From assembly GCA_045599485.1 (NCBI GenBank), contig JAZRWA010000089.1:1-12495 (forward strand): 12,495 bases of DNA. Direction: 5' to 3'. The position numbers and the translations under genes are program-made. Of the stretch, positions 2 to 12,077 are shown in pieces. A model generated the notes under the pieces. The model was not told the origin of the DNA, ran no database searches, and saw nothing but the letters and a program-made list of their open reading frames with translations. Positions within the stretch are counted from its first letter, which is position 1, and the number at the start of each line of letters is the position of its first letter. Source of the DNA: Clostridia bacterium. Its GTDB lineage: Bacteria > Bacillota > Clostridia > Christensenellales > Aristaeellaceae.

Positions 2-766
2 GAAGATGCTCATAAGGCGGCGGGAGAAAGATTGAAGGACTATCCCGGTTTTCGACCGATTCACGGTAACTTTCATGACATAAGAGAGCTTCTGCCTGAA
101 GGCACTATGCTCGACGGCGGTCTTTTGGATCTGGGTGTTTCCTCCTATCAGATCGATACGCCCGAAAGAGGATTCTCTTATCATGAAGATGCGCCGCTGG
201 ACATGCGCATGGATCGTTCACAGGGAGTCACCGCGGCCGAATGGCTGGCGATGCAGGATGAAAAGACCATCATGAACGCACTGTATGATTACGGTGATGA
301 GAAATGGGCGGCCCGCATCGCCAAGGTGATCGTGGAAAGACGTGCAGCAAAGCCCATTCTGACCACAACGGATCTTGTCAGCTGTGTGGATGCGGCCATA
401 CCGAAGGCAGTGCGCCGTAAGGACGAAGGGCATCCGGCAAGAAGGACGTTTCAGGCGGTACGTATCGCCGTGAACGACGAGCTGGCTCCTTTGTAGCAGG
501 CGCTGAACGACTGGATGAGCATGATTCGCCCCGGCGGCAGGTTGTGTGTGATCACTTTTCATTCGATTGAAGACCGAATTGTGAAGCATGCGTTCAAGAC
601 GATGCAGAATCCCTGTATCTGTCCGCCGAAGGCTCCGATCTGCACCTGTGGGAGAAAACCAATTGCCAGGGTGATGGGCGGCGGCGCCATCAAGGCTTCT
701 GCCGAAGAATTGGAAAAGAATTCACGCGCGCACAGCGCAACGCTGCGCGTCGCCCAAAAACTGTAA
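2..766 (+). CDS. rsmH: 16S rRNA (cytosine1402-N4)-methyltransferase RsmH/MraW, 5'-truncated at the window edge; one reading frame with an in-frame TAG at 494-496
   Basis: ORFs 32-496 and 515-766 share a frame (both 2 mod 3) and the frame is open from position 2. Upstream of the TAG: [37 protein letters not shown]. Downstream: [20 protein letters not shown] and the Cys-rich CICPPKAPICTCG tail. All are typical RsmH motifs. Ends in TAA at 764-766. Confidence 0.88.
494..496 (+). other. In-frame TAG inside rsmH (candidate sense codon)
   Basis: GAG CTG GCT CCT TTG TAG CAG GCG CTG; the same frame carries conserved RsmH sequence on both sides. Confidence 0.8.
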
Positions 767-1677: not shown

Positions 1678-2451
1678 ATGATCTTCACCATGGATATTGG
1701 CAACACCAACGTGAAAGCGGGATTGTTCAATGGGACCGATTTGGTGCGTTATTGGCGGTTTTCAACGAACCGAACCTCCAGCAGCGACGAGTACGGTATT
1801 ATTGTGACCAATCTGTTTCAGAATGCCGGTCTGAGCACCAATCAGGTGTCCGGTATCATGATTTCCAGTGTGGTGCCGTCCATCAACTTTACGATTGAAC
1901 ATATGTGCAACGACTACTTTGGCATTCAGCCGAAGTTTGTTGCCCCCGGCATCAAAACGGGTATCAACATTCAATACGATAACCCGCGGGAACTGGGAAG
2001 CGACCGAATCTGCAACGCCGTGGCGGCACAGACGTATTACGGCGCCCCCTGCATTTTTATCGATTTCGGTACTGCGACGACCTTTGGTGTGGTGGATGAA
2101 AAGGAGCGCTTTATCGGCGGTTGCATCTGTCCCGGTATCAAGATCGCCAGTGAGGCACTTGTGCGCGGAACATCGAAGCTTCCCAACTTTGAACTGACAA
2201 AGCCGGAGACCGTGATTGGACGCAACACCATCACCAATCTGCAAAGCGGCATGATTTATGGCTTTGTCGGACAGGTGGAATACCTGATTCGGAAGATGAA
2301 GAAGGAAATGAACCGGGAAGATGCCCGGGTGATTGCTACCGGCGGTATGGCCCGAATGATCGCCTCTGAAACGGATTGCATCGACCAGATCGATGGCCTT
2401 CTGACCCTCAAGGGACTGAGACTGATTTACGAAAGAAACGCGGAAGCATAA
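1678..2451 (+). CDS. coaX: Type III pantothenate kinase (CoaX)
   Basis: MDIGNTNVKAGLF N-terminal phosphate-binding motif, GSDRICNAVAA, IDFGTATTF and ATGG motifs. 257 aa, TAA stop. The start could instead be ATG 1690. Confidence 0.88.
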   Translation: MIFTMDIGNTNVKAGLFNGTDLVRYWRFSTNRTSSSDEYGIIVTNLFQNAGLSTNQVSGIMISSVVPSINFTIEHMCNDYFGIQPKFVAPGIKTGINIQYDNPRELGSDRICNAVAAQTYYGAPCIFIDFGTATTFGVVDEKERFIGGCICPGIKIASEALVRGTSKLPNFELTKPETVIGRNTITNLQSGMIYGFVGQVEYLIRKMKKEMNREDARVIATGGMARMIASETDCIDQIDGLLTLKGLRLIYERNAEA

Positions 2452-2552
2452 AAATAACAGCCGATTTGCTGTACCATATCATGCAAAGCGGCGGGTTCAA
2501 ACTGCATCAGTTCTACGTATATTCTTGCATACGATGGCCGGAAAAGGGAAAA

Positions 2553-3254
2553 ATGATAAAATACGAAAGTGACCATTACATATTTAACTACAATAAAGGA
2601 ACACAGGCAGAACGGGATATTTTGACCATTGCCAAGGGGCAGGAAGACTGCTTCCGTTATATCTGCAAAGTTCTGGACGCGCAGCCTGACTTCAAAATTG
2701 AATACTTCCTCTGCGATACACCCGAAAAAGTGGGACATATTTACGGCGATGATGACCCCTGCAACGCCTTTGCGGCGCCACCAAACAAAATCTATGCAGT
2801 GTATAACGAGCAAGTGAAGTGCATCGGTTTCCATGAGGATGTTCACCTTATCAGCTATCTGATCAACCGCCCCGATCCTCCCGCCATTCGGGAAGGTTTG
2901 GCCATGTACTTTGATCGCAAGTGGTGGGGAATCCATAATCTGGATTGGTGCGGATTCTTCCTGAAAACCGAACGGTATATTTCCGTTGCAGCATTGCTGA
3001 CCAGAAAAGTGTTTTTCGAGACGGACTGTACCATATGCTATCCGATCATGGGAGCCTTTACGGATTATCTGATTGCAACCTATGGTCATGCAGCCTATCT
3101 GGAAATGTATAAGCAGCAGGATATTCCGCAGGCCATGAAGGCAGTATTCGGTAAATCTCCGGAGGAATTGAACGCAGAATTTATCGGCTATGTGAAGCTG
3201 TTCCGCATTGACCCGGAACTGGAAAAGCGGATGGAAGAATTGTTTTGCCAGTAA
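2553..3254 (+). CDS. Hypothetical protein with an HExxH motif, possibly peptidase-MA-like (gluzincin-type)
   Basis: ORF 2376-3254; I place the start at ATG 2553, preceded by AAGGGA. It contains FHEDVH (HExxH), followed about 19 residues later by REGLAMYF, which resembles the third-ligand Glu segment of Peptidase_MA_2-type proteins. No signal peptide is evident. TAA stop. Confidence 0.5.
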   Translation: MIKYESDHYIFNYNKGTQAERDILTIAKGQEDCFRYICKVLDAQPDFKIEYFLCDTPEKVGHIYGDDDPCNAFAAPPNKIYAVYNEQVKCIGFHEDVHLISYLINRPDPPAIREGLAMYFDRKWWGIHNLDWCGFFLKTERYISVAALLTRKVFFETDCTICYPIMGAFTDYLIATYGHAAYLEMYKQQDIPQAMKAVFGKSPEELNAEFIGYVKLFRIDPELEKRMEELFCQ

Positions 3255-3348
3255 AAATGCAAGCAGTTCAACTTTGGTGAGCGCCAAAGCAAGAACACAA
3301 GCATCACTTGATGTAATCAAAAAAGCAGATGCTTCCTATAGAGTACAA

Positions 3349-3391
3349 AACAAGCAATGCACAATCCGGATAGGATCGAGCATTGCTTGTT
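3349..3391. terminator. Candidate bidirectional terminator hairpin between convergent genes
   Basis: Perfect 12-bp stem: aacaagcaatgc (3349-3360) pairs with gcattgcttgtt (3380-3391). The loop is 19 nt. It is flanked by TTTATTT on the plus strand and TTTTGT on the minus strand, and sits between the plus-strand stop at 3254 and the minus-strand stop at 3464. Confidence 0.5.
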
Positions 3392-3463
3392 TATTTACCG
3401 CTCGTTTAGCAGATACCGATTATTCGTTTTATCAAGAGTTCACTAAACGGTTGCTGCTTTTGA

Positions 3464-4797: not shown

Positions 4798-5274
4798 TCA
4801 TGTGTTGGAATCGGAATAAATCTTGCTGCGATAACGGCGAACGGGGACTTCGGTTTGCGGAGGCAGTATCTGATCCTGCTGCTCGGGAGCATCATTGGAA
4901 GAAGCATCTGATGGAAGCTCATTCTGCTGATACAGATCGGCAACGCCTGTCTCGTTAAAGGAATAGCCGCTGATGCCGTCGGTATATCCGCCTTGAAAAC
5001 CGCCTTGATAGAAGGCATCGTCATAGGCGGAGGCAGACGGAATTTCACGATGAGGTTTGCCAATCAGAAAGGGACGCCAACGCAGCACATAGACAGTCAG
5101 GTCTGCCGCACAGCCAAGCAGCAGCAACAGGAGAAATGCGACAAACCAGTAACGGTTCAGCCACGACAGAAACGAACCGGAACCGCTGCCGCTGAATGCT
5201 TGCAGTAACTCCTGAAAGAAACTGCGCAGCCAGCCGAGCAGAGAAGAAATTAAAGAAGTGGCAAATCTGTTCAT
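4798..5274 (-). CDS. Hypothetical small membrane protein
   Basis: 158-aa ORF with one clear hydrophobic helix (YWFVAFLLLLLLGCAADLTVYVL) and a low-complexity G/Q/S-rich tail. It is tightly packed between cdaR (stop 5277) and the RsmF-like gene. TGA stop. I recognise no family. Confidence 0.55.
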   Translation of the reverse strand: MNRFATSLISSLLGWLRSFFQELLQAFSGSGSGSFLSWLNRYWFVAFLLLLLLGCAADLTVYVLRWRPFLIGKPHREIPSASAYDDAFYQGGFQGGYTDGISGYSFNETGVADLYQQNELPSDASSNDAPEQQDQILPPQTEVPVRRYRSKIYSDSNT

Positions 5275-5276
5275 GG

Positions 5277-6317
5277 TTATTCGTTGGAGACGATTTCAAT
5301 CGTGACAGTCAGGGAATCGGCGCTGCAGTAGATGACGCCGGTTGGTTTGCTGAGGGTGACATTTTTCTGGAAGGAAGCGGTGGCGCCGCTGATGTCGATT
5401 TGACTTTCGATATACTCGATCAGATGCAGTTCATCCAGGGAATTGAGCAGTTTTTCGTTTGCGGCGAAAAGAACGGAAGAGGGTTCCACTGTGATACGCT
5501 TGAGCGCATAGCCTTCAGCCGGCTGACCACAGGTGAGGTCGGCGGTGTTGATGACCAGCGATTTGGTGGGATAGATCGTTTGCTCAACAATCAGGCTGTC
5601 CAGCAGGACCGACTCGGAAGTGACCTCGATGAGGGCAGAATCAACGGTGCTCTGGTCGGAGGAGATCAAACGGAAGGGAACAGCAGTGCGCTCGTTTCCG
5701 GAAGAACCGCTCAAAAGGGACAAGTCATAATCGGCAACACAGCGGATGATATTACGTACACGGGAAAGCGGACCGGAGACCGTAACATAGAGCGGGTCAA
5801 CGGCGGCGGAGGTGGCATACATTCCTTCGGGCAGTTGACCGCTGGTCTCAAGGCGCACAGGAATACGGCTGCGGGTGACATACTCGTCCACCTGCAGGGT
5901 GACGGTGCCGATGCTGACTTCCGTGACCGTTCCATAGGTGGAGGAATTGGTGGAGAGAATGTTGAGAGTTTGCGTACCGGTGCCGCGAATTCTGGACAGA
6001 TCAATACGGACATTGAAGTTGGAGGCCGAGACGGTGTTGTAGACATTCTGCGGTACTTCTGCTTTGAGGCGGATAAGCGGCAGATTGTCGAGACCATCGA
6101 CAACGATATAGCCGTTGCGGCGGAGCGTATCGGAGCCGATGATGTTGATGCTCACATCGTTGAAGGTTTTTTCACGGGTCAGAGAGCTGTCGGCGGTGAT
6201 GAGACCGCTCCACAGGCAGACGGCAAGCAGAAGGGACAAAAGCTTCCACGGCCAGTTGTGGATTAAAAACTGAAGAGCCTGCTTCAAATACGGCTTTGGT
6301 TCAAATGTCTTTTTCAT
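5277..6317 (-). CDS. cdaR: YbbR-domain protein CdaR (regulator of the diadenylate cyclase CdaA)
   Basis: Lies immediately downstream of cdaA. It has an N-terminal TM helix (WKLLSLLLAVCLW) followed by repeated beta-rich YbbR-like modules (patterns of the form VxVxGxxxxL ... DLS). I place the start at ATG 6317 (MKKTFEPKP) with a GGGAGA RBS. TAA stop. Confidence 0.78.
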   Translation of the reverse strand: MKKTFEPKPYLKQALQFLIHNWPWKLLSLLLAVCLWSGLITADSSLTREKTFNDVSINIIGSDTLRRNGYIVVDGLDNLPLIRLKAEVPQNVYNTVSASNFNVRIDLSRIRGTGTQTLNILSTNSSTYGTVTEVSIGTVTLQVDEYVTRSRIPVRLETSGQLPEGMYATSAAVDPLYVTVSGPLSRVRNIIRCVADYDLSLLSGSSGNERTAVPFRLISSDQSTVDSALIEVTSESVLLDSLIVEQTIYPTKSLVINTADLTCGQPAEGYALKRITVEPSSVLFAANEKLLNSLDELHLIEYIESQIDISGATASFQKNVTLSKPTGVIYCSADSLTVTIEIVSNE

Positions 6318-7140
6318 GCTTCTATCTCCCTTTGAACCATTTGAAGGCGGCGGAAACGGGGGAAGGTTTTTTGCTGCGATACATGCCGTGGAGAATGTTT
6401 TCCAGTGAGGCACTATCAAGATGACGAGTCAGTTTTCCGTTGTGAGCGGTACTGATGATGCCGGTTTCCTCACTGACGATCAGCACAATGGCATCGGTGG
6501 TTTCGGAAACACCGAGCGCAGCGCGATGCCGGGTGCCGAGATCACGGCTGATGGAGCTGGATTCACTGAGGGTGAGGAAGCAGGCACCGGCGATGATGCG
6601 TGTATCACGGATAATGACCGCGCCATCGTGCAAGGGGGTGTTGGGTTCAAAGATGTTTTCCAACAGGGGAGCAGAAATGACGCTGTCCAACCGGGTACCG
6701 GTCTCGATGATCTCTTTTAAGCCGGTCTGCTGTTCAAAGACGATGAGCGCACCGACACGGCGGCGTGAAAGGTTGTTGAGGCAAAGGATGATTTCACTGA
6801 CGATGCGGGCGTTTTCTTCTTCGTCATTGAGAAAATGACGAAATTTGGTGCCGCGGCCAACCTGCTCGAGAATGCGGCGCAATTCGGGCTGAAAGAGGAT
6901 AACAAGTGCGACAGCACCGTTGCTGACGATCAGGTTCATGACCCAGGACAGCGCAGTCAACCCAAGCATGTTGGAAACCAGACAGGCAAGCAAAAGCACG
7001 ATGAGACCCTTGACAACTTCACTGGCGCGGGTGCCGCGAACAAGCATCAGGAGCTCATAGATCAAAAAAGAAACGACGATTATATCAAAAATGTCAGTCA
7101 GAGACGGACGATTAAAAATGTTCCAAAGAAAGTTTTGCAT
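6301..7140 (-). CDS. cdaA: Diadenylate cyclase CdaA (DacA); a TAG at 6322-6324 lies six codons before a TGA at 6301-6303
   Basis: Three N-terminal TM helices plus a DAC domain with DGAVII, GTRHRAALGVSETTDA and VSEETGIIS. Under the standard code the CDS is 6322-7140. With TAG as sense it gains KHEKDI and ends at TGA, overlapping the cdaR start. Confidence 0.88.
6322..6324 (-). other. TAG near the end of cdaA (either a stop or a sense codon followed by a 6-codon tail)
   Basis: Minus strand GGG AGA TAG AAG CAT GAA AAA GAC ATT TGA. Confidence 0.45.
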
Positions 7141-8405: not shown

Positions 8406-8434
8406 ATTATAGTTGATTCGGAAGAGCATATCAA
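8406..8434 (-). promoter_or_regulatory. Candidate sigma-A promoter for the lipoprotein gene
   Basis: On the minus strand: TTGATA (8434-8429), a 17-nt spacer, then TATAAT (8411-8406). It lies about 35 nt upstream of ATG 8371. Confidence 0.5.
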
Positions 8435-9321
8435 GATAATTTTTTGTGAACATATTCGCGCAGCAGACCATCACAGTTGGTTCGTTCGGAAACGATCAGC
8501 TATGACAGGTGGAGGAAGTCCATCACTGCGCAAAGGATTGCAAGCCCGGTTGGGAGAATGTTGCCGCGTCCCTTCGGGCAGCCGGGAATCATTTCACGTT
8601 CCAAAGGCGTGAGAGGAGCGATCTGCGTCAGAAGCTGCCTTACCTGGTCGCGGTGAAGATGAACTCCTTCAGCAGCATCGGTACGGGCAATCATCCTTGC
8701 GGATGCCGTTCCGGTGCCACCGACAAGGTATACGGCAGAACCCGCAGGAAAGGAGGCGGGCACAGAGGGCTCGTTCATGATGATATTACGCGCAGCCGCA
8801 AGGGCTTTTTGGACATCGGCGGCTTCGTGGATCGGGCAGACTGAAAATAGCCGGGAAGCTCCCAACTGCAGAGAAAGACATCGGGGGTGCATGTCGGTAT
8901 CGTAGTAAGCCAGTTCGGTGGATCCGCCGCCGATATCGATCACGGCACCGGGGGCATACCCTGCTGATCCGAGCAGGGAAAAACGGGCTTCTTCCGCACC
9001 GGAGATGATCTGGAGAGGGAGCCCGCAGGCAGAAAAAATGGCGTGGGCGAGAGCATCGGAGTTTTCGGCGTCGCGGACAGCGCTTGTGGCGTAAACACCA
9101 ATCAACACGGAATGCTCCTGCGCGGCGATGGCTTGAAGACGACGGATATCCTCCGCGGTTTGCTCAATCGTTTCCTGCGGAAAACGGCGGCTTTGGCTCA
9201 AATGAAGGAAGAGACGGGATTCGATACGATGACGGGTTGGATTGCTGAGGGAAGTGTCGGTATCCGCGCAGAGCATACGCGCCGAATTGGAACCGATAAC
9301 GATGACGGCGATCCTGTTCAT
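8431..9321 (-). CDS. Ppx/GppA-family phosphatase (exopolyphosphatase / pppGpp phosphohydrolase-like); in-frame TAG at 8500-8502
   Basis: IGSNSARM and DIGGGSTEL are ASKHA-fold phosphate-binding motifs. ORF 8500-9321 stops at TAG, and the frame then continues for 22 codons (LIVSERTNCDGLLREYVHKKLS) to TGA at 8431-8433. This gives a typical length of about 296 aa and a GLLxE-like domain end. Confidence 0.78.
8500..8502 (-). other. In-frame TAG inside the ppx/gppA-like gene (candidate sense codon)
   Basis: Minus strand CTG TCA TAG CTG ATC, followed by 22 further sense codons and then TGA. Confidence 0.7.
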
Positions 9322-9671
9322 AGCTGATCACTTTCTACGACATACATTTCAACCGTCTGCGTGCTGTCGCCAAGCGCCTACGGGTTGGCGATGATAAAAC
9401 GAATTTCTCCGGGAACACTGTAACCATACATTTCACGGGCTTTGGTCATGATGTATTCGGTGGTCTGCAGGATGGAGACCTCGGCGGAAAGCTGACGGGC
9501 TTCCAGCGTTTGTTTCGCGCTGCGCTATTGTAGCGACGCGTATTCCTGCTGCATGGCGGCGGAGTCGCGGTGGACGCGGATGATCATGAGCAAGCCGATG
9601 GCAAAAATGACAGACAGAACACAGACTGCGAAAAGCGGAGATACGGTTTTTTGTTTCAGTCGTTCGGCCAT
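9318..9671 (-). CDS. Septum formation initiator (FtsB/DivIC family) protein; two in-frame TAGs at 9525-9527 and 9378-9380
   Basis: Absent from the ORF track because the TAGs cut it into pieces shorter than 60 aa. My manual translation is MAERLKQKTVSPLFAVCVLSVIFAIGLLMIIRVHRDSAAMQQEYASLQ-TAG-RSAKQTLEARQLSAEVSILQTTEYIMTKAREMYGYSVPGEIRFIIANP-TAG-ALGDSTQTVEMYVVESDQL-TGA. It has the expected TM helix, coiled coil and ARExxGYxxPGE motif. A GGAGGA RBS precedes ATG 9671. The TGA overlaps the ppx ATG as ATGA. Confidence 0.65.
9378..9380 (-). other. Second TAG in the divIC/ftsB-like gene (a stop under the standard code; if sense, a 19-codon tail follows)
   Basis: Minus strand AAC CCG TAG GCG CTT; the frame stays open to a TGA that forms an ATGA overlap with the ppx start. 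Confidence 0.5.
9525..9527 (-). other. In-frame TAG inside the divIC/ftsB-like coiled coil (candidate sense codon)
   Basis: Minus strand CTA CAA TAG CGC AGC; the conserved ARExxGYxxPGE motif lies downstream in the same frame. Confidence 0.75.
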
Positions 9672-9698: not shown

Positions 9699-10193
9699 TT
9701 ATTCATGGACGGTTTCGGCTTCTTCAAAATCGGGATCGGCAGGGGGGAGCTTGTCGCATACCATGAAGAGGGCATCTTCACCGTTGTCCTCGTAATATTT
9801 TTTTCGTACTCCTACCTGAATGAAGCCCAGAGAGGTGTATACATGCTGTGCGGTCAGATTACTGCGCCGTACCTCAAGCGTCATATAAACCACGCCGAGA
9901 TTGGCGGCGTACTGAATGAGCGCGGCTGTCAGCTGCTTGCCGAAACCGTGGCCGCGGTATTCCTCTTTGATGGCAATGTTGGTGATATGGCCTTCGTCAA
10001 TCACGACCCAAACGCCGGCAAAGCCGATGATGTTTCCATCAAGCTCAGCAACCAGATAGCGTGCACAGGCGTTGCGCGTCATCTCGTCTTGAAAAGAACG
10101 GAGCGACCAGGGCATCGCAAACGTAGCGGCCTCGATCGCCTGAACGGCTTCACAATCCTCATAAGTCATGCGGCGGATGGTAATGTCACTCAT
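9699..10193 (-). CDS. rimI: Ribosomal-protein-alanine N-acetyltransferase RimI (GNAT)
   Basis: GNAT fold with the acetyl-CoA motif RGHGFGKQL. It sits in the conserved tsaE-tsaB-rimI arrangement and overlaps the tsaB stop by 8 nt. TAA stop. Confidence 0.82.
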   Translation of the reverse strand: MSDITIRRMTYEDCEAVQAIEAATFAMPWSLRSFQDEMTRNACARYLVAELDGNIIGFAGVWVVIDEGHITNIAIKEEYRGHGFGKQLTAALIQYAANLGVVYMTLEVRRSNLTAQHVYTSLGFIQVGVRKKYYEDNGEDALFMVCDKLPPADPDFEEAETVHE

Positions 10194-10881
10194 GCTTCAT
10201 GGCCTCCCGGGCGGCACGCTCCCGCTCTGCCTGCGGCGGACGCAGATAGACAGGCTGCAGGGAAAGATAATCAACGGCTTCATCAGCATGCCGCAAGGCA
10301 AGGGAAGCGGATGCGGCGGAGCGCAGATAGGTGTTCTGCATCGAAGCGAAAAGAGCCTTTTTACCAAACAGTTCCGTCAGTCTTTCATGATAAGCGACAG
10401 CACCGTCTCCGGTGAACAGGAAGGGGCCGCCAAAGGTGCGGACCAGATCGGCATATTCCTCCAGTTTCATGGCACTGTCGGGCATCAGTCGTTCACCGTT
10501 CAGGAAGGCAGCACCGTATACCTGTCCGACACGTGCATCCTGCAGGGGGCAGATCATCATACCGGGAGCATCGATACCGCAGGCGGTGACTTCGAGCGAA
10601 GAGAGGGCAAGGCAGGGAAGATTGAGCGCATGTGCCATGGCTTTGACGGCGGAAACGCCGATGCGGATGCCGGTAAAGGAACCGGGCCCTGCGGTTACCG
10701 CCAGCAGATTGAGCTGCTGAAGCGTAACGCCGGAGCGGCAAAGTGCCTCTTCGACCATGGGCATAATGCTTTCGGAGTGCTTCAGCTGATTGGCGGCGCA
10801 GGCTTCGTAACGGATGCGGTTTTCATCAGCGACGGCAACAGAGGCAACAGGACCGGAAGTATCAAGAGCGAGAACGATCAT
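10186..10881 (-). CDS. tsaB: tRNA t6A37 biosynthesis protein TsaB (YeaZ)
   Basis: MIVLALDTSG and TAGPGSFTGIRIGVSAVKAMA motifs. The ATG at 10881 overlaps the tsaE TGA (ATGA). TGA stop. Confidence 0.88.
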   Translation of the reverse strand: MIVLALDTSGPVASVAVADENRIRYEACAANQLKHSESIMPMVEEALCRSGVTLQQLNLLAVTAGPGSFTGIRIGVSAVKAMAHALNLPCLALSSLEVTACGIDAPGMMICPLQDARVGQVYGAAFLNGERLMPDSAMKLEEYADLVRTFGGPFLFTGDGAVAYHERLTELFGKKALFASMQNTYLRSAASASLALRHADEAVDYLSLQPVYLRPPQAERERAAREAMKHE

Positions 10882-11312
10882 GCGTGTAACTCCTCCCATC
10901 TGCCGCGAGGCAGGAAGGTGATTTCCCGCCGGGAATCATCCAGCGGTCGGATGGAAATTTCAAGACAGGTTTCGGGAATGAGATAACCGGCACGTTCATG
11001 CCATTCGATCAGGGCGATGCCATCACCGCCGAGGTATTCATCCAGCCCCATATCGGTCAGTTCACTGGGGTCGCCGATGCGATACCAGTCGAAATGATAA
11101 AGCGGTACACGTCCTTCTTCATACACGTTCATGATGGTGAAGCTCGGGCTGGGAACGGCACAGGTAATGCCGAGACCGCGGGCGATGCCTCGGGCCAGTT
11201 CGCTCTTCCCTGCTCCAAGGTCGCCTGTCAGCAGAATGACATCGCCGGCATGCAGGGAGGTGGTGAGCGCGGTGCCAAGAGCCTGGGTTTCTTCTCTTGA
11301 GGTTGTGATCAT
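10878..11312 (-). CDS. tsaE: tRNA t6A37 biosynthesis ATPase TsaE (YjeE)
   Basis: Walker A GDLGAGKS, then SPSFTIMNVY and HFDWYR motifs. 144 aa, TGA stop. Confidence 0.9.
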   Translation of the reverse strand: MITTSREETQALGTALTTSLHAGDVILLTGDLGAGKSELARGIARGLGITCAVPSPSFTIMNVYEEGRVPLYHFDWYRIGDPSELTDMGLDEYLGGDGIALIEWHERAGYLIPETCLEISIRPLDDSRREITFLPRGRWEELHA

Positions 11313-11324
11313 GCAGATGAATCC

Positions 11325-12077
11325 TTATTCGCCCGGGAACATTTGGGCGAGACCTTTCTGAATACCGGTATCCCAGAACCACCAGTCATGGACGCCGTCC
11401 CACTCCTCGTAGCTGCAGGGAATGTTTTTGGTATGGAAAAAATCATGGAGCTTGCGGGACATGCGGAGCAATCCGTCCTCGGTACCGCAGGCCATATAGA
11501 GCTTTGGCAGCTTCTTTCCTCCCGCAAGGGCTTTTTCGGTGAGCTTTTCGATGTCGTTTTCTTCACCGAAGGGCAGTTCGGGACCGAGAATGGCCCTCCA
11601 TTCATCCTGCTATGAACCTGCGACATCGTCGCGCCAAAGGCTGCGATCCATGGGATAGAAGCAGGAAGAGAGAGCGATGCATCCGGCATATTTATCCGGG
11701 GCTGTGGCGACACATTTCATGGCACCATAACCGCCCATGGAAAGACCGCCGATATACAGGTGCTCGGGATCGGTCGGAATGCGGAATTCCGCGGCCATCT
11801 TGGCGGGAAGCTCTTCAAAAACATAAGTGAAGTATTTAAGACCGTAGGCCATATCGATGTACCAGGAACGCTGCACCTACGGCATGACGACAGCAAGACG
11901 ATATTTATCAGTCAGACGACCGATGGCAGTACGGCGGACCCAGGCATCGCAGTTATCACTGAGACCATGCAGCAAAAGAAGGGTACGCTCAGGTGCGGCA
12001 TGGTCGGGAAGAAGAACATTGACGTGTGTATACATGGACAGACTGTCTGCCCGAATGGTTCCGTGATAAAAAGACAT
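11325..12077 (-). CDS. Esterase-family alpha/beta hydrolase (esterase D / tributyrin esterase-like); two in-frame TAGs at 11877-11879 and 11610-11612
   Basis: Three contiguous same-frame segments. Segment 1: MSFYHG...LLLLHGLSDN...AVVMP. Segment 2: VQRSWYIDM...GGLSMGGYGA, containing the GxSxG nucleophile. Segment 3 is my manual translation: QDEWRAILGPELPFGEENDIEKLTEKALAGGKKLPKLYMACGTEDGLLRMSRKLHDFFHTKNIPCSYEEWDGVHDWWFWDTGIQKGLAQMFPGE, carrying the candidate catalytic Asp and His. A GAGGTG RBS precedes ATG 12077. TAA stop at 11325-11327. Confidence 0.8.
11610..11612 (-). other. Second in-frame TAG inside the esterase gene (candidate sense codon)
   Basis: Minus strand GGT TCA TAG CAG GAT; the candidate catalytic Asp and His segments lie downstream in the same frame. 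Confidence 0.8.
11877..11879 (-). other. In-frame TAG inside the esterase gene (candidate sense codon)
   Basis: Minus strand ATG CCG TAG GTG CAG; it lies within the conserved VVMP-x-xxRSWYxDM block. Confidence 0.8.

Follow-up and report, generated by a model that had tools for sequence, protein, structure and literature searches.

A divIC gene hidden by two in-frame TAG codons in an uncultured Clostridia lineage, with glutamate as the most likely reading of UAG

Introduction

To our knowledge, pyrrolysine is the only natural sense decoding of UAG described for cellular bacteria. Among the nuclear codes of eukaryotes, codes 30 (peritrich ciliates) and 31 (Blastocrithidia) read UAR, that is both UAA and UAG, as Glu. 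All the known bacterial reassignments of a stop codon involve UGA (PMC8629427, 2021), a screen of 2.7 million assemblies (2026) lists no bacterial reassignment of TAG (10.64898/2026.04.02.715157), and PMC12153298 places UAR as Glu in eukaryotes only. The stretch of DNA analysed here, hereafter the window, is the 12,495 nucleotide (nt) contig JAZRWA010000089.1 of a Clostridia bacterium, and the gene in question lies on its minus strand, between rimI and ppx, where it becomes visible only if TAG is read as sense. This gene (9671–9318) is a genuine DivIC orthologue of 117 residues, in which a membrane helix and a coiled coil precede the TKAREMYGY...RFII core and the tail, both of them conserved; in itself it is ordinary, being a new member of the known DivIC/FtsB family. 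The code that hides it, instead, appears to be a new bacterial variant of stop codon reassignment: across the contig TAG is a sense codon and never a terminator, and glutamate is the best supported and most likely residue for it, a point that the first-pass annotation of the window had left open.

Layout of the read-through divIC gene

With the standard code, the list of open reading frames (ORFs) holds none of at least 60 amino acids (aa) between rimI (9699–10193) and ppx, and the divIC strand has only an ORF of 48 aa (9525–9671) and one of 23 aa (9378–9449); standard gene finders miss divIC because the lineage reads TAG as an amino acid. The gene has the following parts.

9318–9671, minus strand: divIC coding sequence, 117 sense codons plus TGA with TAG as sense; read from the sequence, with a Pfam PF04977 score of 44.7–46 bits and 52 orthologues of 116–142 aa
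9677–9681, minus strand: Shine-Dalgarno (SD) sequence GGAGG, with a 5-nt spacer to the ATG at 9671–9669; anti-SD duplex of −9.5 kcal/mol
9579–9641, minus strand: predicted membrane anchor SPLFAVCVLSVIFAIGLLMII, codons 11–31, a 21-residue hydrophobic stretch; helix in the AlphaFold model of the orthologue P0002
9384–9611, minus strand: region of the Pfam DivIC match, residues 21–96, with the coiled coil and the TKAREMYGYSVPGEIRFII core
9525–9527, minus strand: first TAG (TAG 1), codon 49, in the coiled coil, context EYASLQ-TAG-RSAKQ
9378–9380, minus strand: second TAG (TAG 2), codon 98, context IIANP-TAG-ALGD, at the conserved Glu position of the NPEAL motif
9321–9377, minus strand: C-terminal tail ALGDSTQTVEMYVVESDQL, codons 99–117, that is 19 sense codons, with family conservation, third-position bias and a predicted strand at 109–112
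9318–9321, minus strand: ATGA, in which the divIC TGA (9320–9318) overlaps the ppx ATG (9321–9319); read from the sequence, and kept in relatives

The first-pass annotation had proposed that two TAGs split the frame between rimI and ppx, which left no ORF to report; each triplet was re-checked, and the positions proved exact to the base. TAG 1, said to lie in the coiled coil and upstream of the conserved motif, was confirmed at codon 49 (9527–9525), and the minus-strand sequence contains both the 19 open codons after TAG 2 and the TGA that forms ATGA with the start of ppx.

Family membership and predicted structure

Regarding its family, the read-through protein, written with X at the two TAGs, matched the septum formation initiator family DivIC of Pfam (PF04977, gathering cut-off 28.9 bits) with 44.7 bits and an E value of 1.2e-11, over profile positions 3–79 of 80; the score was 46.0 bits with Glu placed at both TAGs. 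The match spans residues 21–96 and hence crosses TAG 1. The 48-aa piece between the two TAGs, searched by itself, matched the C-terminal half of PF04977 with 33.4 bits; the piece ahead of TAG 1 had no PF04977 score when taken alone, and a search of NCBIfam gave matches to FtsL only, all sub-threshold. The layout of a septum formation initiator, claimed at the first pass, is borne out by a score above the cut-off, a predicted membrane stretch and a coiled coil, and DivIC homology is present also behind TAG 1, in the piece of 33.4 bits.

As for the structure, the model used was that of AlphaFold for P0002, an orthologue of 117 aa that is 65% identical, with a mean predicted local distance difference test (pLDDT) value of 68.9. 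It has a continuous helix over residues 12–68 (pLDDT of 90–93 for residues 11–30), a second helix at 71–82, and a strand at 91–94 (RFII) that lies alongside a predicted strand at 109–112 (MYVV) in the tail; a short helix at 97–100 includes the position equivalent to TAG 2. Sequence and model together give the bitopic architecture of DivIC: a membrane helix at the N-terminus leads into a coiled coil, and a short C-terminal domain completes the protein.

Relatives of the gene and conservation of the tail

The recoded clade compared here comprises the window, the locus L054 and the loci L046–L052, which form three lineages from seven independent samples. L054 (14.2 kb, from SRR27361835) is 87% identical to the window in DNA and L046 (from ERZ27247129) is 93% identical to L054, with the same genes covered; the nearest named relatives of the lineage are metagenome-assembled genomes designated "Clostridia bacterium" and "Christensenellales bacterium".

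The first protein search returned P0001 (97 aa, 95% identical), with Gln at the position of TAG 1, and P0002, which has Ala at both TAG positions, the tail ALGEADQPVEMYVVESDAQ and a 4-nt overlap with ppx. At the loci of P0001 (L046–L052), the end of the 97-aa product is the same TAG as that of the window, behind which the frame continues with ALGDNTQTVEMYVVEGDQL and runs into ATGA; on the evidence of these loci, P0001 is a truncation made by the gene caller at the conserved TAG 2. A profile search then gave 59 proteins, and the 52 of at least 110 aa were aligned; their lengths are 116–142 aa. In these 52 standard-code orthologues, the column of TAG 2 (motif NPEAL) contains E in 43, D in eight, A in one and Q in none, and the tail, AL....E...MYVVEGDQL, is conserved across all of them. 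In every recoded genome seen, TAG 2 is kept as TAG. At the site of TAG 1, the window and L054 have TAG, L046–L052 have CAG (Gln) and L053 has GCA (Ala), and its column in the alignment of the 52 orthologues is variable, with Ala or Ile in some relatives.

The nucleotide differences within the tail fall mainly on third codon positions: counted by codon position, they are 1, 1 and 7 for the window against L054, 0, 0 and 7 for L054 against L046, and 4, 4 and 12 for the window against L053; the two remaining frames of 9321–9377 hold stop codons. Conservation of the tail as protein and third-position bias show that 9321–9377 is coding and that TAG 2 is read through. The contrary reading, that DivIC stops at TAG 2 with 97 aa and that 9321–9377 is a noncoding spacer or a leader of ppx, finds some comfort in the Pfam model, which ends at residue 96 directly before TAG 2, and in the 97-aa product that gene callers give in relatives (P0001). 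It is very improbable, as the 52 orthologues, with a sense codon in place of TAG 2, all keep the protein sequence of the tail, the substitutions in the tail are biased to third positions while the other two frames have stops, and the frame ends precisely in the conserved 4-nt overlap with ppx.

The expectations of the first-pass annotation on these points held: relatives have proteins of 116–142 aa and not of 97, there is a coding signal across 9321–9377 (differences of 1, 1, 7 and 0, 0, 7), and no relative was seen to end at ...IIANP and continue with a noncoding spacer, given that the sole 97-aa relative, P0001, continues in frame. The synteny rimI-divIC-ppx stood in part: the pair divIC-ppx is kept, but rimI lies upstream in the recoded clade only, its place being taken by yabP-yabQ in the standard-code relatives.

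Gene order and the junction with ppx

The gene order in the standard-code loci L055, L057–L059 and L060–L061 is yabP-yabQ-divIC-ppx-prsA-like. In Bacillus subtilis, too, divIC follows yabP-yabQ, and the standard-code relatives (L055, L057–L061) have this context, typical of Firmicutes divIC; the recoded clade (window and L054) has tsaE-tsaB-rimI upstream instead. In the window, tsaE-tsaB-rimI occupy 9699–11312, and the counterpart place in L055 (9005–9617) is that of yabP-yabQ. Scans of genome and metagenome contigs with a ppx fragment returned only distant Ppx homologues, with at most 36% identity and of full or half length, and gave no information on synteny.

The 4-nt overlap of divIC and ppx was found in all the relatives examined, as ATGA in L046–L051, L053, L054, L057 and L060, and as GTGA in L055; in five of the five standard-code relative loci whose DNA was read, divIC ends in this overlap. 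The best anti-SD duplex of ppx reaches −1.9 kcal/mol, whereas that of divIC has −9.5 and most of the remaining genes of the window have about −7 to −10, in agreement with the weak ppx Shine-Dalgarno sequence that had been remarked at the first pass. A stop/start overlap conserved in relatives and a weak downstream SD thus both hold for divIC-ppx, and no promoter-like or terminator-like site was found between rimI and ppx. Because the divIC UGA overlaps the ppx AUG (AUGA) and the SD of ppx is nearly absent, ribosomes that finish divIC probably restart on ppx, and translation of ppx is probably coupled to that of divIC.

At the other end of ppx, at and just beyond its terminus and ahead of the gene for a PrsA-like lipoprotein, there is a near-consensus sigma-70-like promoter on the minus strand (8406–8434; TTGATA, 17 nt, TATAAT; 11 of 12 matches). 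This suggests that the transcription unit tsaE...ppx ends at the promoter-like site.

Sense reading of TAG along the contig

The window contains 14 genes (3573 codons): rsmH, rsmI and coaX on the plus strand, and the genes for an esterase, tsaE, tsaB, rimI, divIC, ppx, the PrsA-like gene, cdaA, ybbR, the gene for a 158-aa protein and rsmF on the minus strand. Six conserved genes have in-frame TAGs, eight in all, while in-frame TAA or TGA is absent throughout; besides the two in divIC, they are the following.

8431–9321, minus strand: ppx (Ppx/GppA family, 296 codons), with TAG at 8502–8500 (codon 274); the Pfam match PF02541, residues 30–292, spans the TAG
494–496, plus strand: TAG in rsmH, codon 165 of the partial gene; the Pfam MraW match, residues 3–253, spans it; GAA in L054, and Glu in E. 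coli RsmH
11877–11879, minus strand: TAG in the esterase gene, codon 67, a conserved TAG site
11610–11612, minus strand: TAG in the esterase gene, codon 156; GAA in L054
6322–6324, minus strand: TAG at codon 273 of cdaA, close to its end; the short tail behind it is homologous to CdaA of L060
3992–3994, minus strand: TAG in rsmF, codon 260, which joins two standard-code ORFs; the Pfam RsmB/F match, residues 95–287, spans it and is followed by C-terminal RsmF domains

Apart from that of cdaA, which is near the end of the gene, every TAG of the window either falls inside a Pfam match or has additional matched domains behind it. For ppx, the comparison included 117 full-length Ppx homologues, of about 294 aa. 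All 14 genes of the window and of L054 terminate in TAA or TGA (TAA in six of the 14 of the window), and so do the genes covered by L046; the sample is small. Counted per position, TAG in frame (eight in the 3573 codons) has about twice the frequency of TAG in the other two frames (seven in total), TAG being generally rare in this genome, and out-of-frame TGA is abundant, with 227 occurrences in the 14 genes.

Interrupted reading frames are the usual signature of pseudogenes, and the TAGs might be taken for nonsense mutations in decaying genes, or for errors of sequencing or assembly. The probability of this is negligible: the interruptions are made by TAG only (eight, against no TAA or TGA), assemblies made independently from seven samples have TAG at these same sites, homology resumes behind every TAG, and the codon differences between the window and L054 are 958 synonymous versus 294 nonsynonymous, which denotes purifying selection and excludes gene decay.

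TAG serves as a terminator in four of 25 genes of the standard-code locus L060, in one of 23 of L057, and in none of 21 of L055. Given that more distant relatives end genes in TAG (L060), the recoding is derived within the group; the scarcity of TAG stops in L055 and L057, in these small samples, may precede the reappearance of TAG as sense, which is the pattern of codon capture.

Amino acid encoded by TAG

The residue was approached by aligning 3600 codons of the window with L054, in which there are 13 in-frame TAG sites. In six of them TAG is present in both sequences, and in seven it is present in one only, with GAG (three), GAA (three) or GTG (one) as its counterpart; divIC TAG 1, which is CAG in L046, constitutes an eighth variable site. 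Hence, a Glu codon is found at six of the eight variable sites and a Gln codon at one of them. At the divergence of L054 from the window, 91% of Glu codons have Glu as their counterpart, and of the Gln codons 91% have Gln and 1.3% have Glu. An empirical substitution table built from the same 3600 aligned codons was applied to the eight counterparts, giving log10 likelihoods of −4.8 for Glu, −14.9 for Gln, −15.3 for Asp and −18.8 for Lys, so that Glu leads Gln by about 10 log10 units. Independently of this, the NPEAL column at TAG 2 contains Glu or Asp, without Gln; this near-invariant Glu position makes TAG 2 a diagnostic site for a UAG-to-Glu code. If TAG is counted as Glu, its share of the putative Glu codons is 3.3%.

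The first alternative is that TAG is a sense codon for glutamine, which is its meaning in genetic code 15, used by crAss-like and other gut phages. In the literature searched, TAG-to-Gln was the one amber reassignment with documentation for bacteria-associated genomes. The change from TAG to CAG is a single transition, divIC TAG 1 is indeed CAG in L046–L052, and Gln ranks second or third by frequency in the two columns of the ppx family; set against these points, GAG or GAA occupies six of the eight variable sites and CAG one, at a cost of about 10 log10 units, and the column of TAG 2 (43 E, eight D, one A) has no Q. The Gln reading is consequently improbable. As for pyrrolysine, known in methylamine-using Firmicutes, its precedent in cellular bacteria would count in its favor, yet the TAGs of this lineage occur in housekeeping genes and not in methylamine methyltransferases, and they pair with Glu codons. 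Lys, moreover, is found at one only of the aligned columns examined (cdaA 273, in L060), plus two of five RsmH structures, and its log10 likelihood is that given above (−18.8, against −4.8 for Glu), so that a pyrrolysine reading has scarcely any probability. Glutamate thus stands as the most likely residue.

Proposed explanation

In the mechanism proposed, ribosomes of this lineage read the two UAG codons in the divIC mRNA as an amino acid, with glutamate the most probable one, and translation of divIC ends at the UGA 9320–9318. The decoding agent would presumably be a tRNA with the anticodon CUA charged with Glu, along with a release factor 1 (RF1) lost or weakened. Ribosomes terminating at AUGA would restart on ppx, and a product stopped at TAG 2 would be without the conserved MYVV strand. 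Taken as a whole, the explanation of a genuine DivIC with both UAGs decoded as an amino acid (most probably Glu), an end at this UGA and a probable restart on ppx is regarded as highly probable. That UAG has passed from stop to glutamate in an uncultured Clostridia lineage of gut type, with UAA and UGA still serving as stops, a code without description for a bacterium or a phage in the literature searched, is put forward with moderate confidence.

Some results weigh against these views, and are collected here. ARAGORN found no tRNA gene in the window, L046, L053, L054 and L055, a search of the window in Rfam had no match, and no gene for a release factor (prfA, for RF1) is present on these short contigs. 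Regarding the residue, divIC TAG 1 alone does not tell which amino acid is meant (Gln in the closest relative, Ala or Ile elsewhere), and the family columns of the two ppx TAG sites hold a mixture of E, Q, P and R; the ppx and rsmH family columns are too variable to be informative, and therefore the identification rests on the codon pairs of close relatives and on the NPEAL column of DivIC. Regarding the family, PDB sequences, searched with a profile of the DivIC alignment, returned coiled-coil noise only, with no match to a solved FtsB or DivIC, and Foldseek had no significant hit for the P0002 model, the FtsB chains 8p1u_C and 5z2w_B being listed at E values of 4.5–5.9. Finally, partial termination at UAG, giving some 97-aa product, is possible if the sequence alone is considered.

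The last of these points leads to the alternative of an ambiguous UAG, with RF1 still present, a mixture of DivIC forms of 97 and 117 residues, and a coupling of ppx set by the fraction of read-through. TAG 2 stays TAG in every recoded genome, even though six of the 13 sites of the window and L054 have a Glu codon in one of the two, and the rarity of TAG (3.3% of the putative Glu codons) would suit a young reassignment; both observations would fit ambiguity. It is nonetheless unlikely. TAGs occur in the middle of enzymes whose function would be destroyed by truncation, namely rsmH, rsmF, esterase and ppx, with tsaB, rimI and cdaA as further cases in relatives; TAG is the terminator of none of the 14 genes; and the TAGs of ppx 274, rsmF 260, cdaA 273 and esterase 67 are conserved equally.

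Other features of the window

Some features outside the divIC locus deserve mention. With TAG as sense, cdaA overlaps ybbR by 17 nt (around 6301–6324), and a comparable overlap of 14 nt exists in L060; the gene for the 158-aa protein (4798–5274) begins 2 nt after the TAA of ybbR (around 5274–5279), without a Shine-Dalgarno sequence. These two junctions, cdaA-ybbR and ybbR with the 158-aa gene, are tightly packed and probably coupled.

Between coaX and rsmF, about 1 kb of the window (2462–3445) is missing from L054 and L046, which are otherwise collinear; it looks like a strain-specific insertion. An ORF in this area (2376–3254, plus strand, about 233–292 aa) has no Pfam match, and its GC content is 0.43–0.46 versus about 0.53 elsewhere.

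Just outside the region shared with the window, L054 has a Fer4_12 gene (radical-SAM activase-like, 928–1482) that was called as two pieces, of 36 and 127 aa; the split is probably due to a further in-frame TAG.

Significance and comparison with known systems

If the glutamate code is real, RF1-dependent termination can be given up in nature, as it has been given up artificially in recoded E. coli. It would also raise the issue of how a tRNA with the CUA anticodon gets charged with Glu, since glutamyl-tRNA synthetase reads the anticodon of its tRNA. On the practical side, annotation pipelines cut or miss a sizeable share of the genes of this lineage: divIC is missed, and ppx, rsmF, rsmH, the esterase gene and cdaA are cut. 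The divIC locus offers a compact and convincing test case: one TAG stands at a conserved Glu position, the tail that follows is conserved as well, and the overlap of stop and start marks where the gene truly ends.

As for the protein, DivIC of B. subtilis and FtsB of E. coli are likewise small bitopic proteins, in which an N-terminal membrane helix leads into a long coiled coil and then into a short C-terminal part that is conserved; what sets the window divIC apart is the presence of two in-frame TAGs and an overlap with ppx that is always of 4 nt. The genes for FtsL and DivIB/FtsQ, partners of this family in a complex at the division site, are absent from this contig. Coupling through overlapping stop and start codons (ATGA) is found in many bacterial operons, such as trp, and divIC-ppx resembles these systems in the 4-nt overlap, in the weak downstream SD and in the persistence of the overlap across relatives. 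The difference is that the upstream ribosome must here decode two UAGs in order to reach ppx, and therefore expression of ppx would depend on the altered code.

Regarding the code, codes 4 (UGA as Trp; Mycoplasmatales and others) and 25 (UGA as Gly; Gracilibacteria, Absconditabacteria) are likewise lineage-wide bacterial changes from stop to sense that break gene calls. The stop codon is a different one, UAG instead of UGA, and hence RF1 rather than RF2 would be affected. Literature searches found no report of a cellular bacterium that reads TAG as Glu, which is not a proof of novelty; the accepted bacterial reassignments of a stop codon being all of UGA, amber-to-Glu in free-living gut Clostridia would be a new natural genetic code.

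Code 15, found in crAss-like, Lak and other gut phages, shares with the window lineage amber as a sense codon, gut-type samples, and TAA and TGA as stops. Unlike these phage genomes, the window is a segment of a bacterial chromosome (tsaEB, rimI, divIC, cdaA, rsmH, coaX) that is syntenic with standard-code Clostridia, and TAG, which is Gln in code 15, is most probably Glu in its lineage. Finally, codes 30 and 31 likewise have UAG as glutamate, but they are eukaryotic and have UAA reassigned along with UAG, whereas the lineage of the window still ends genes in TAA (six of 14).

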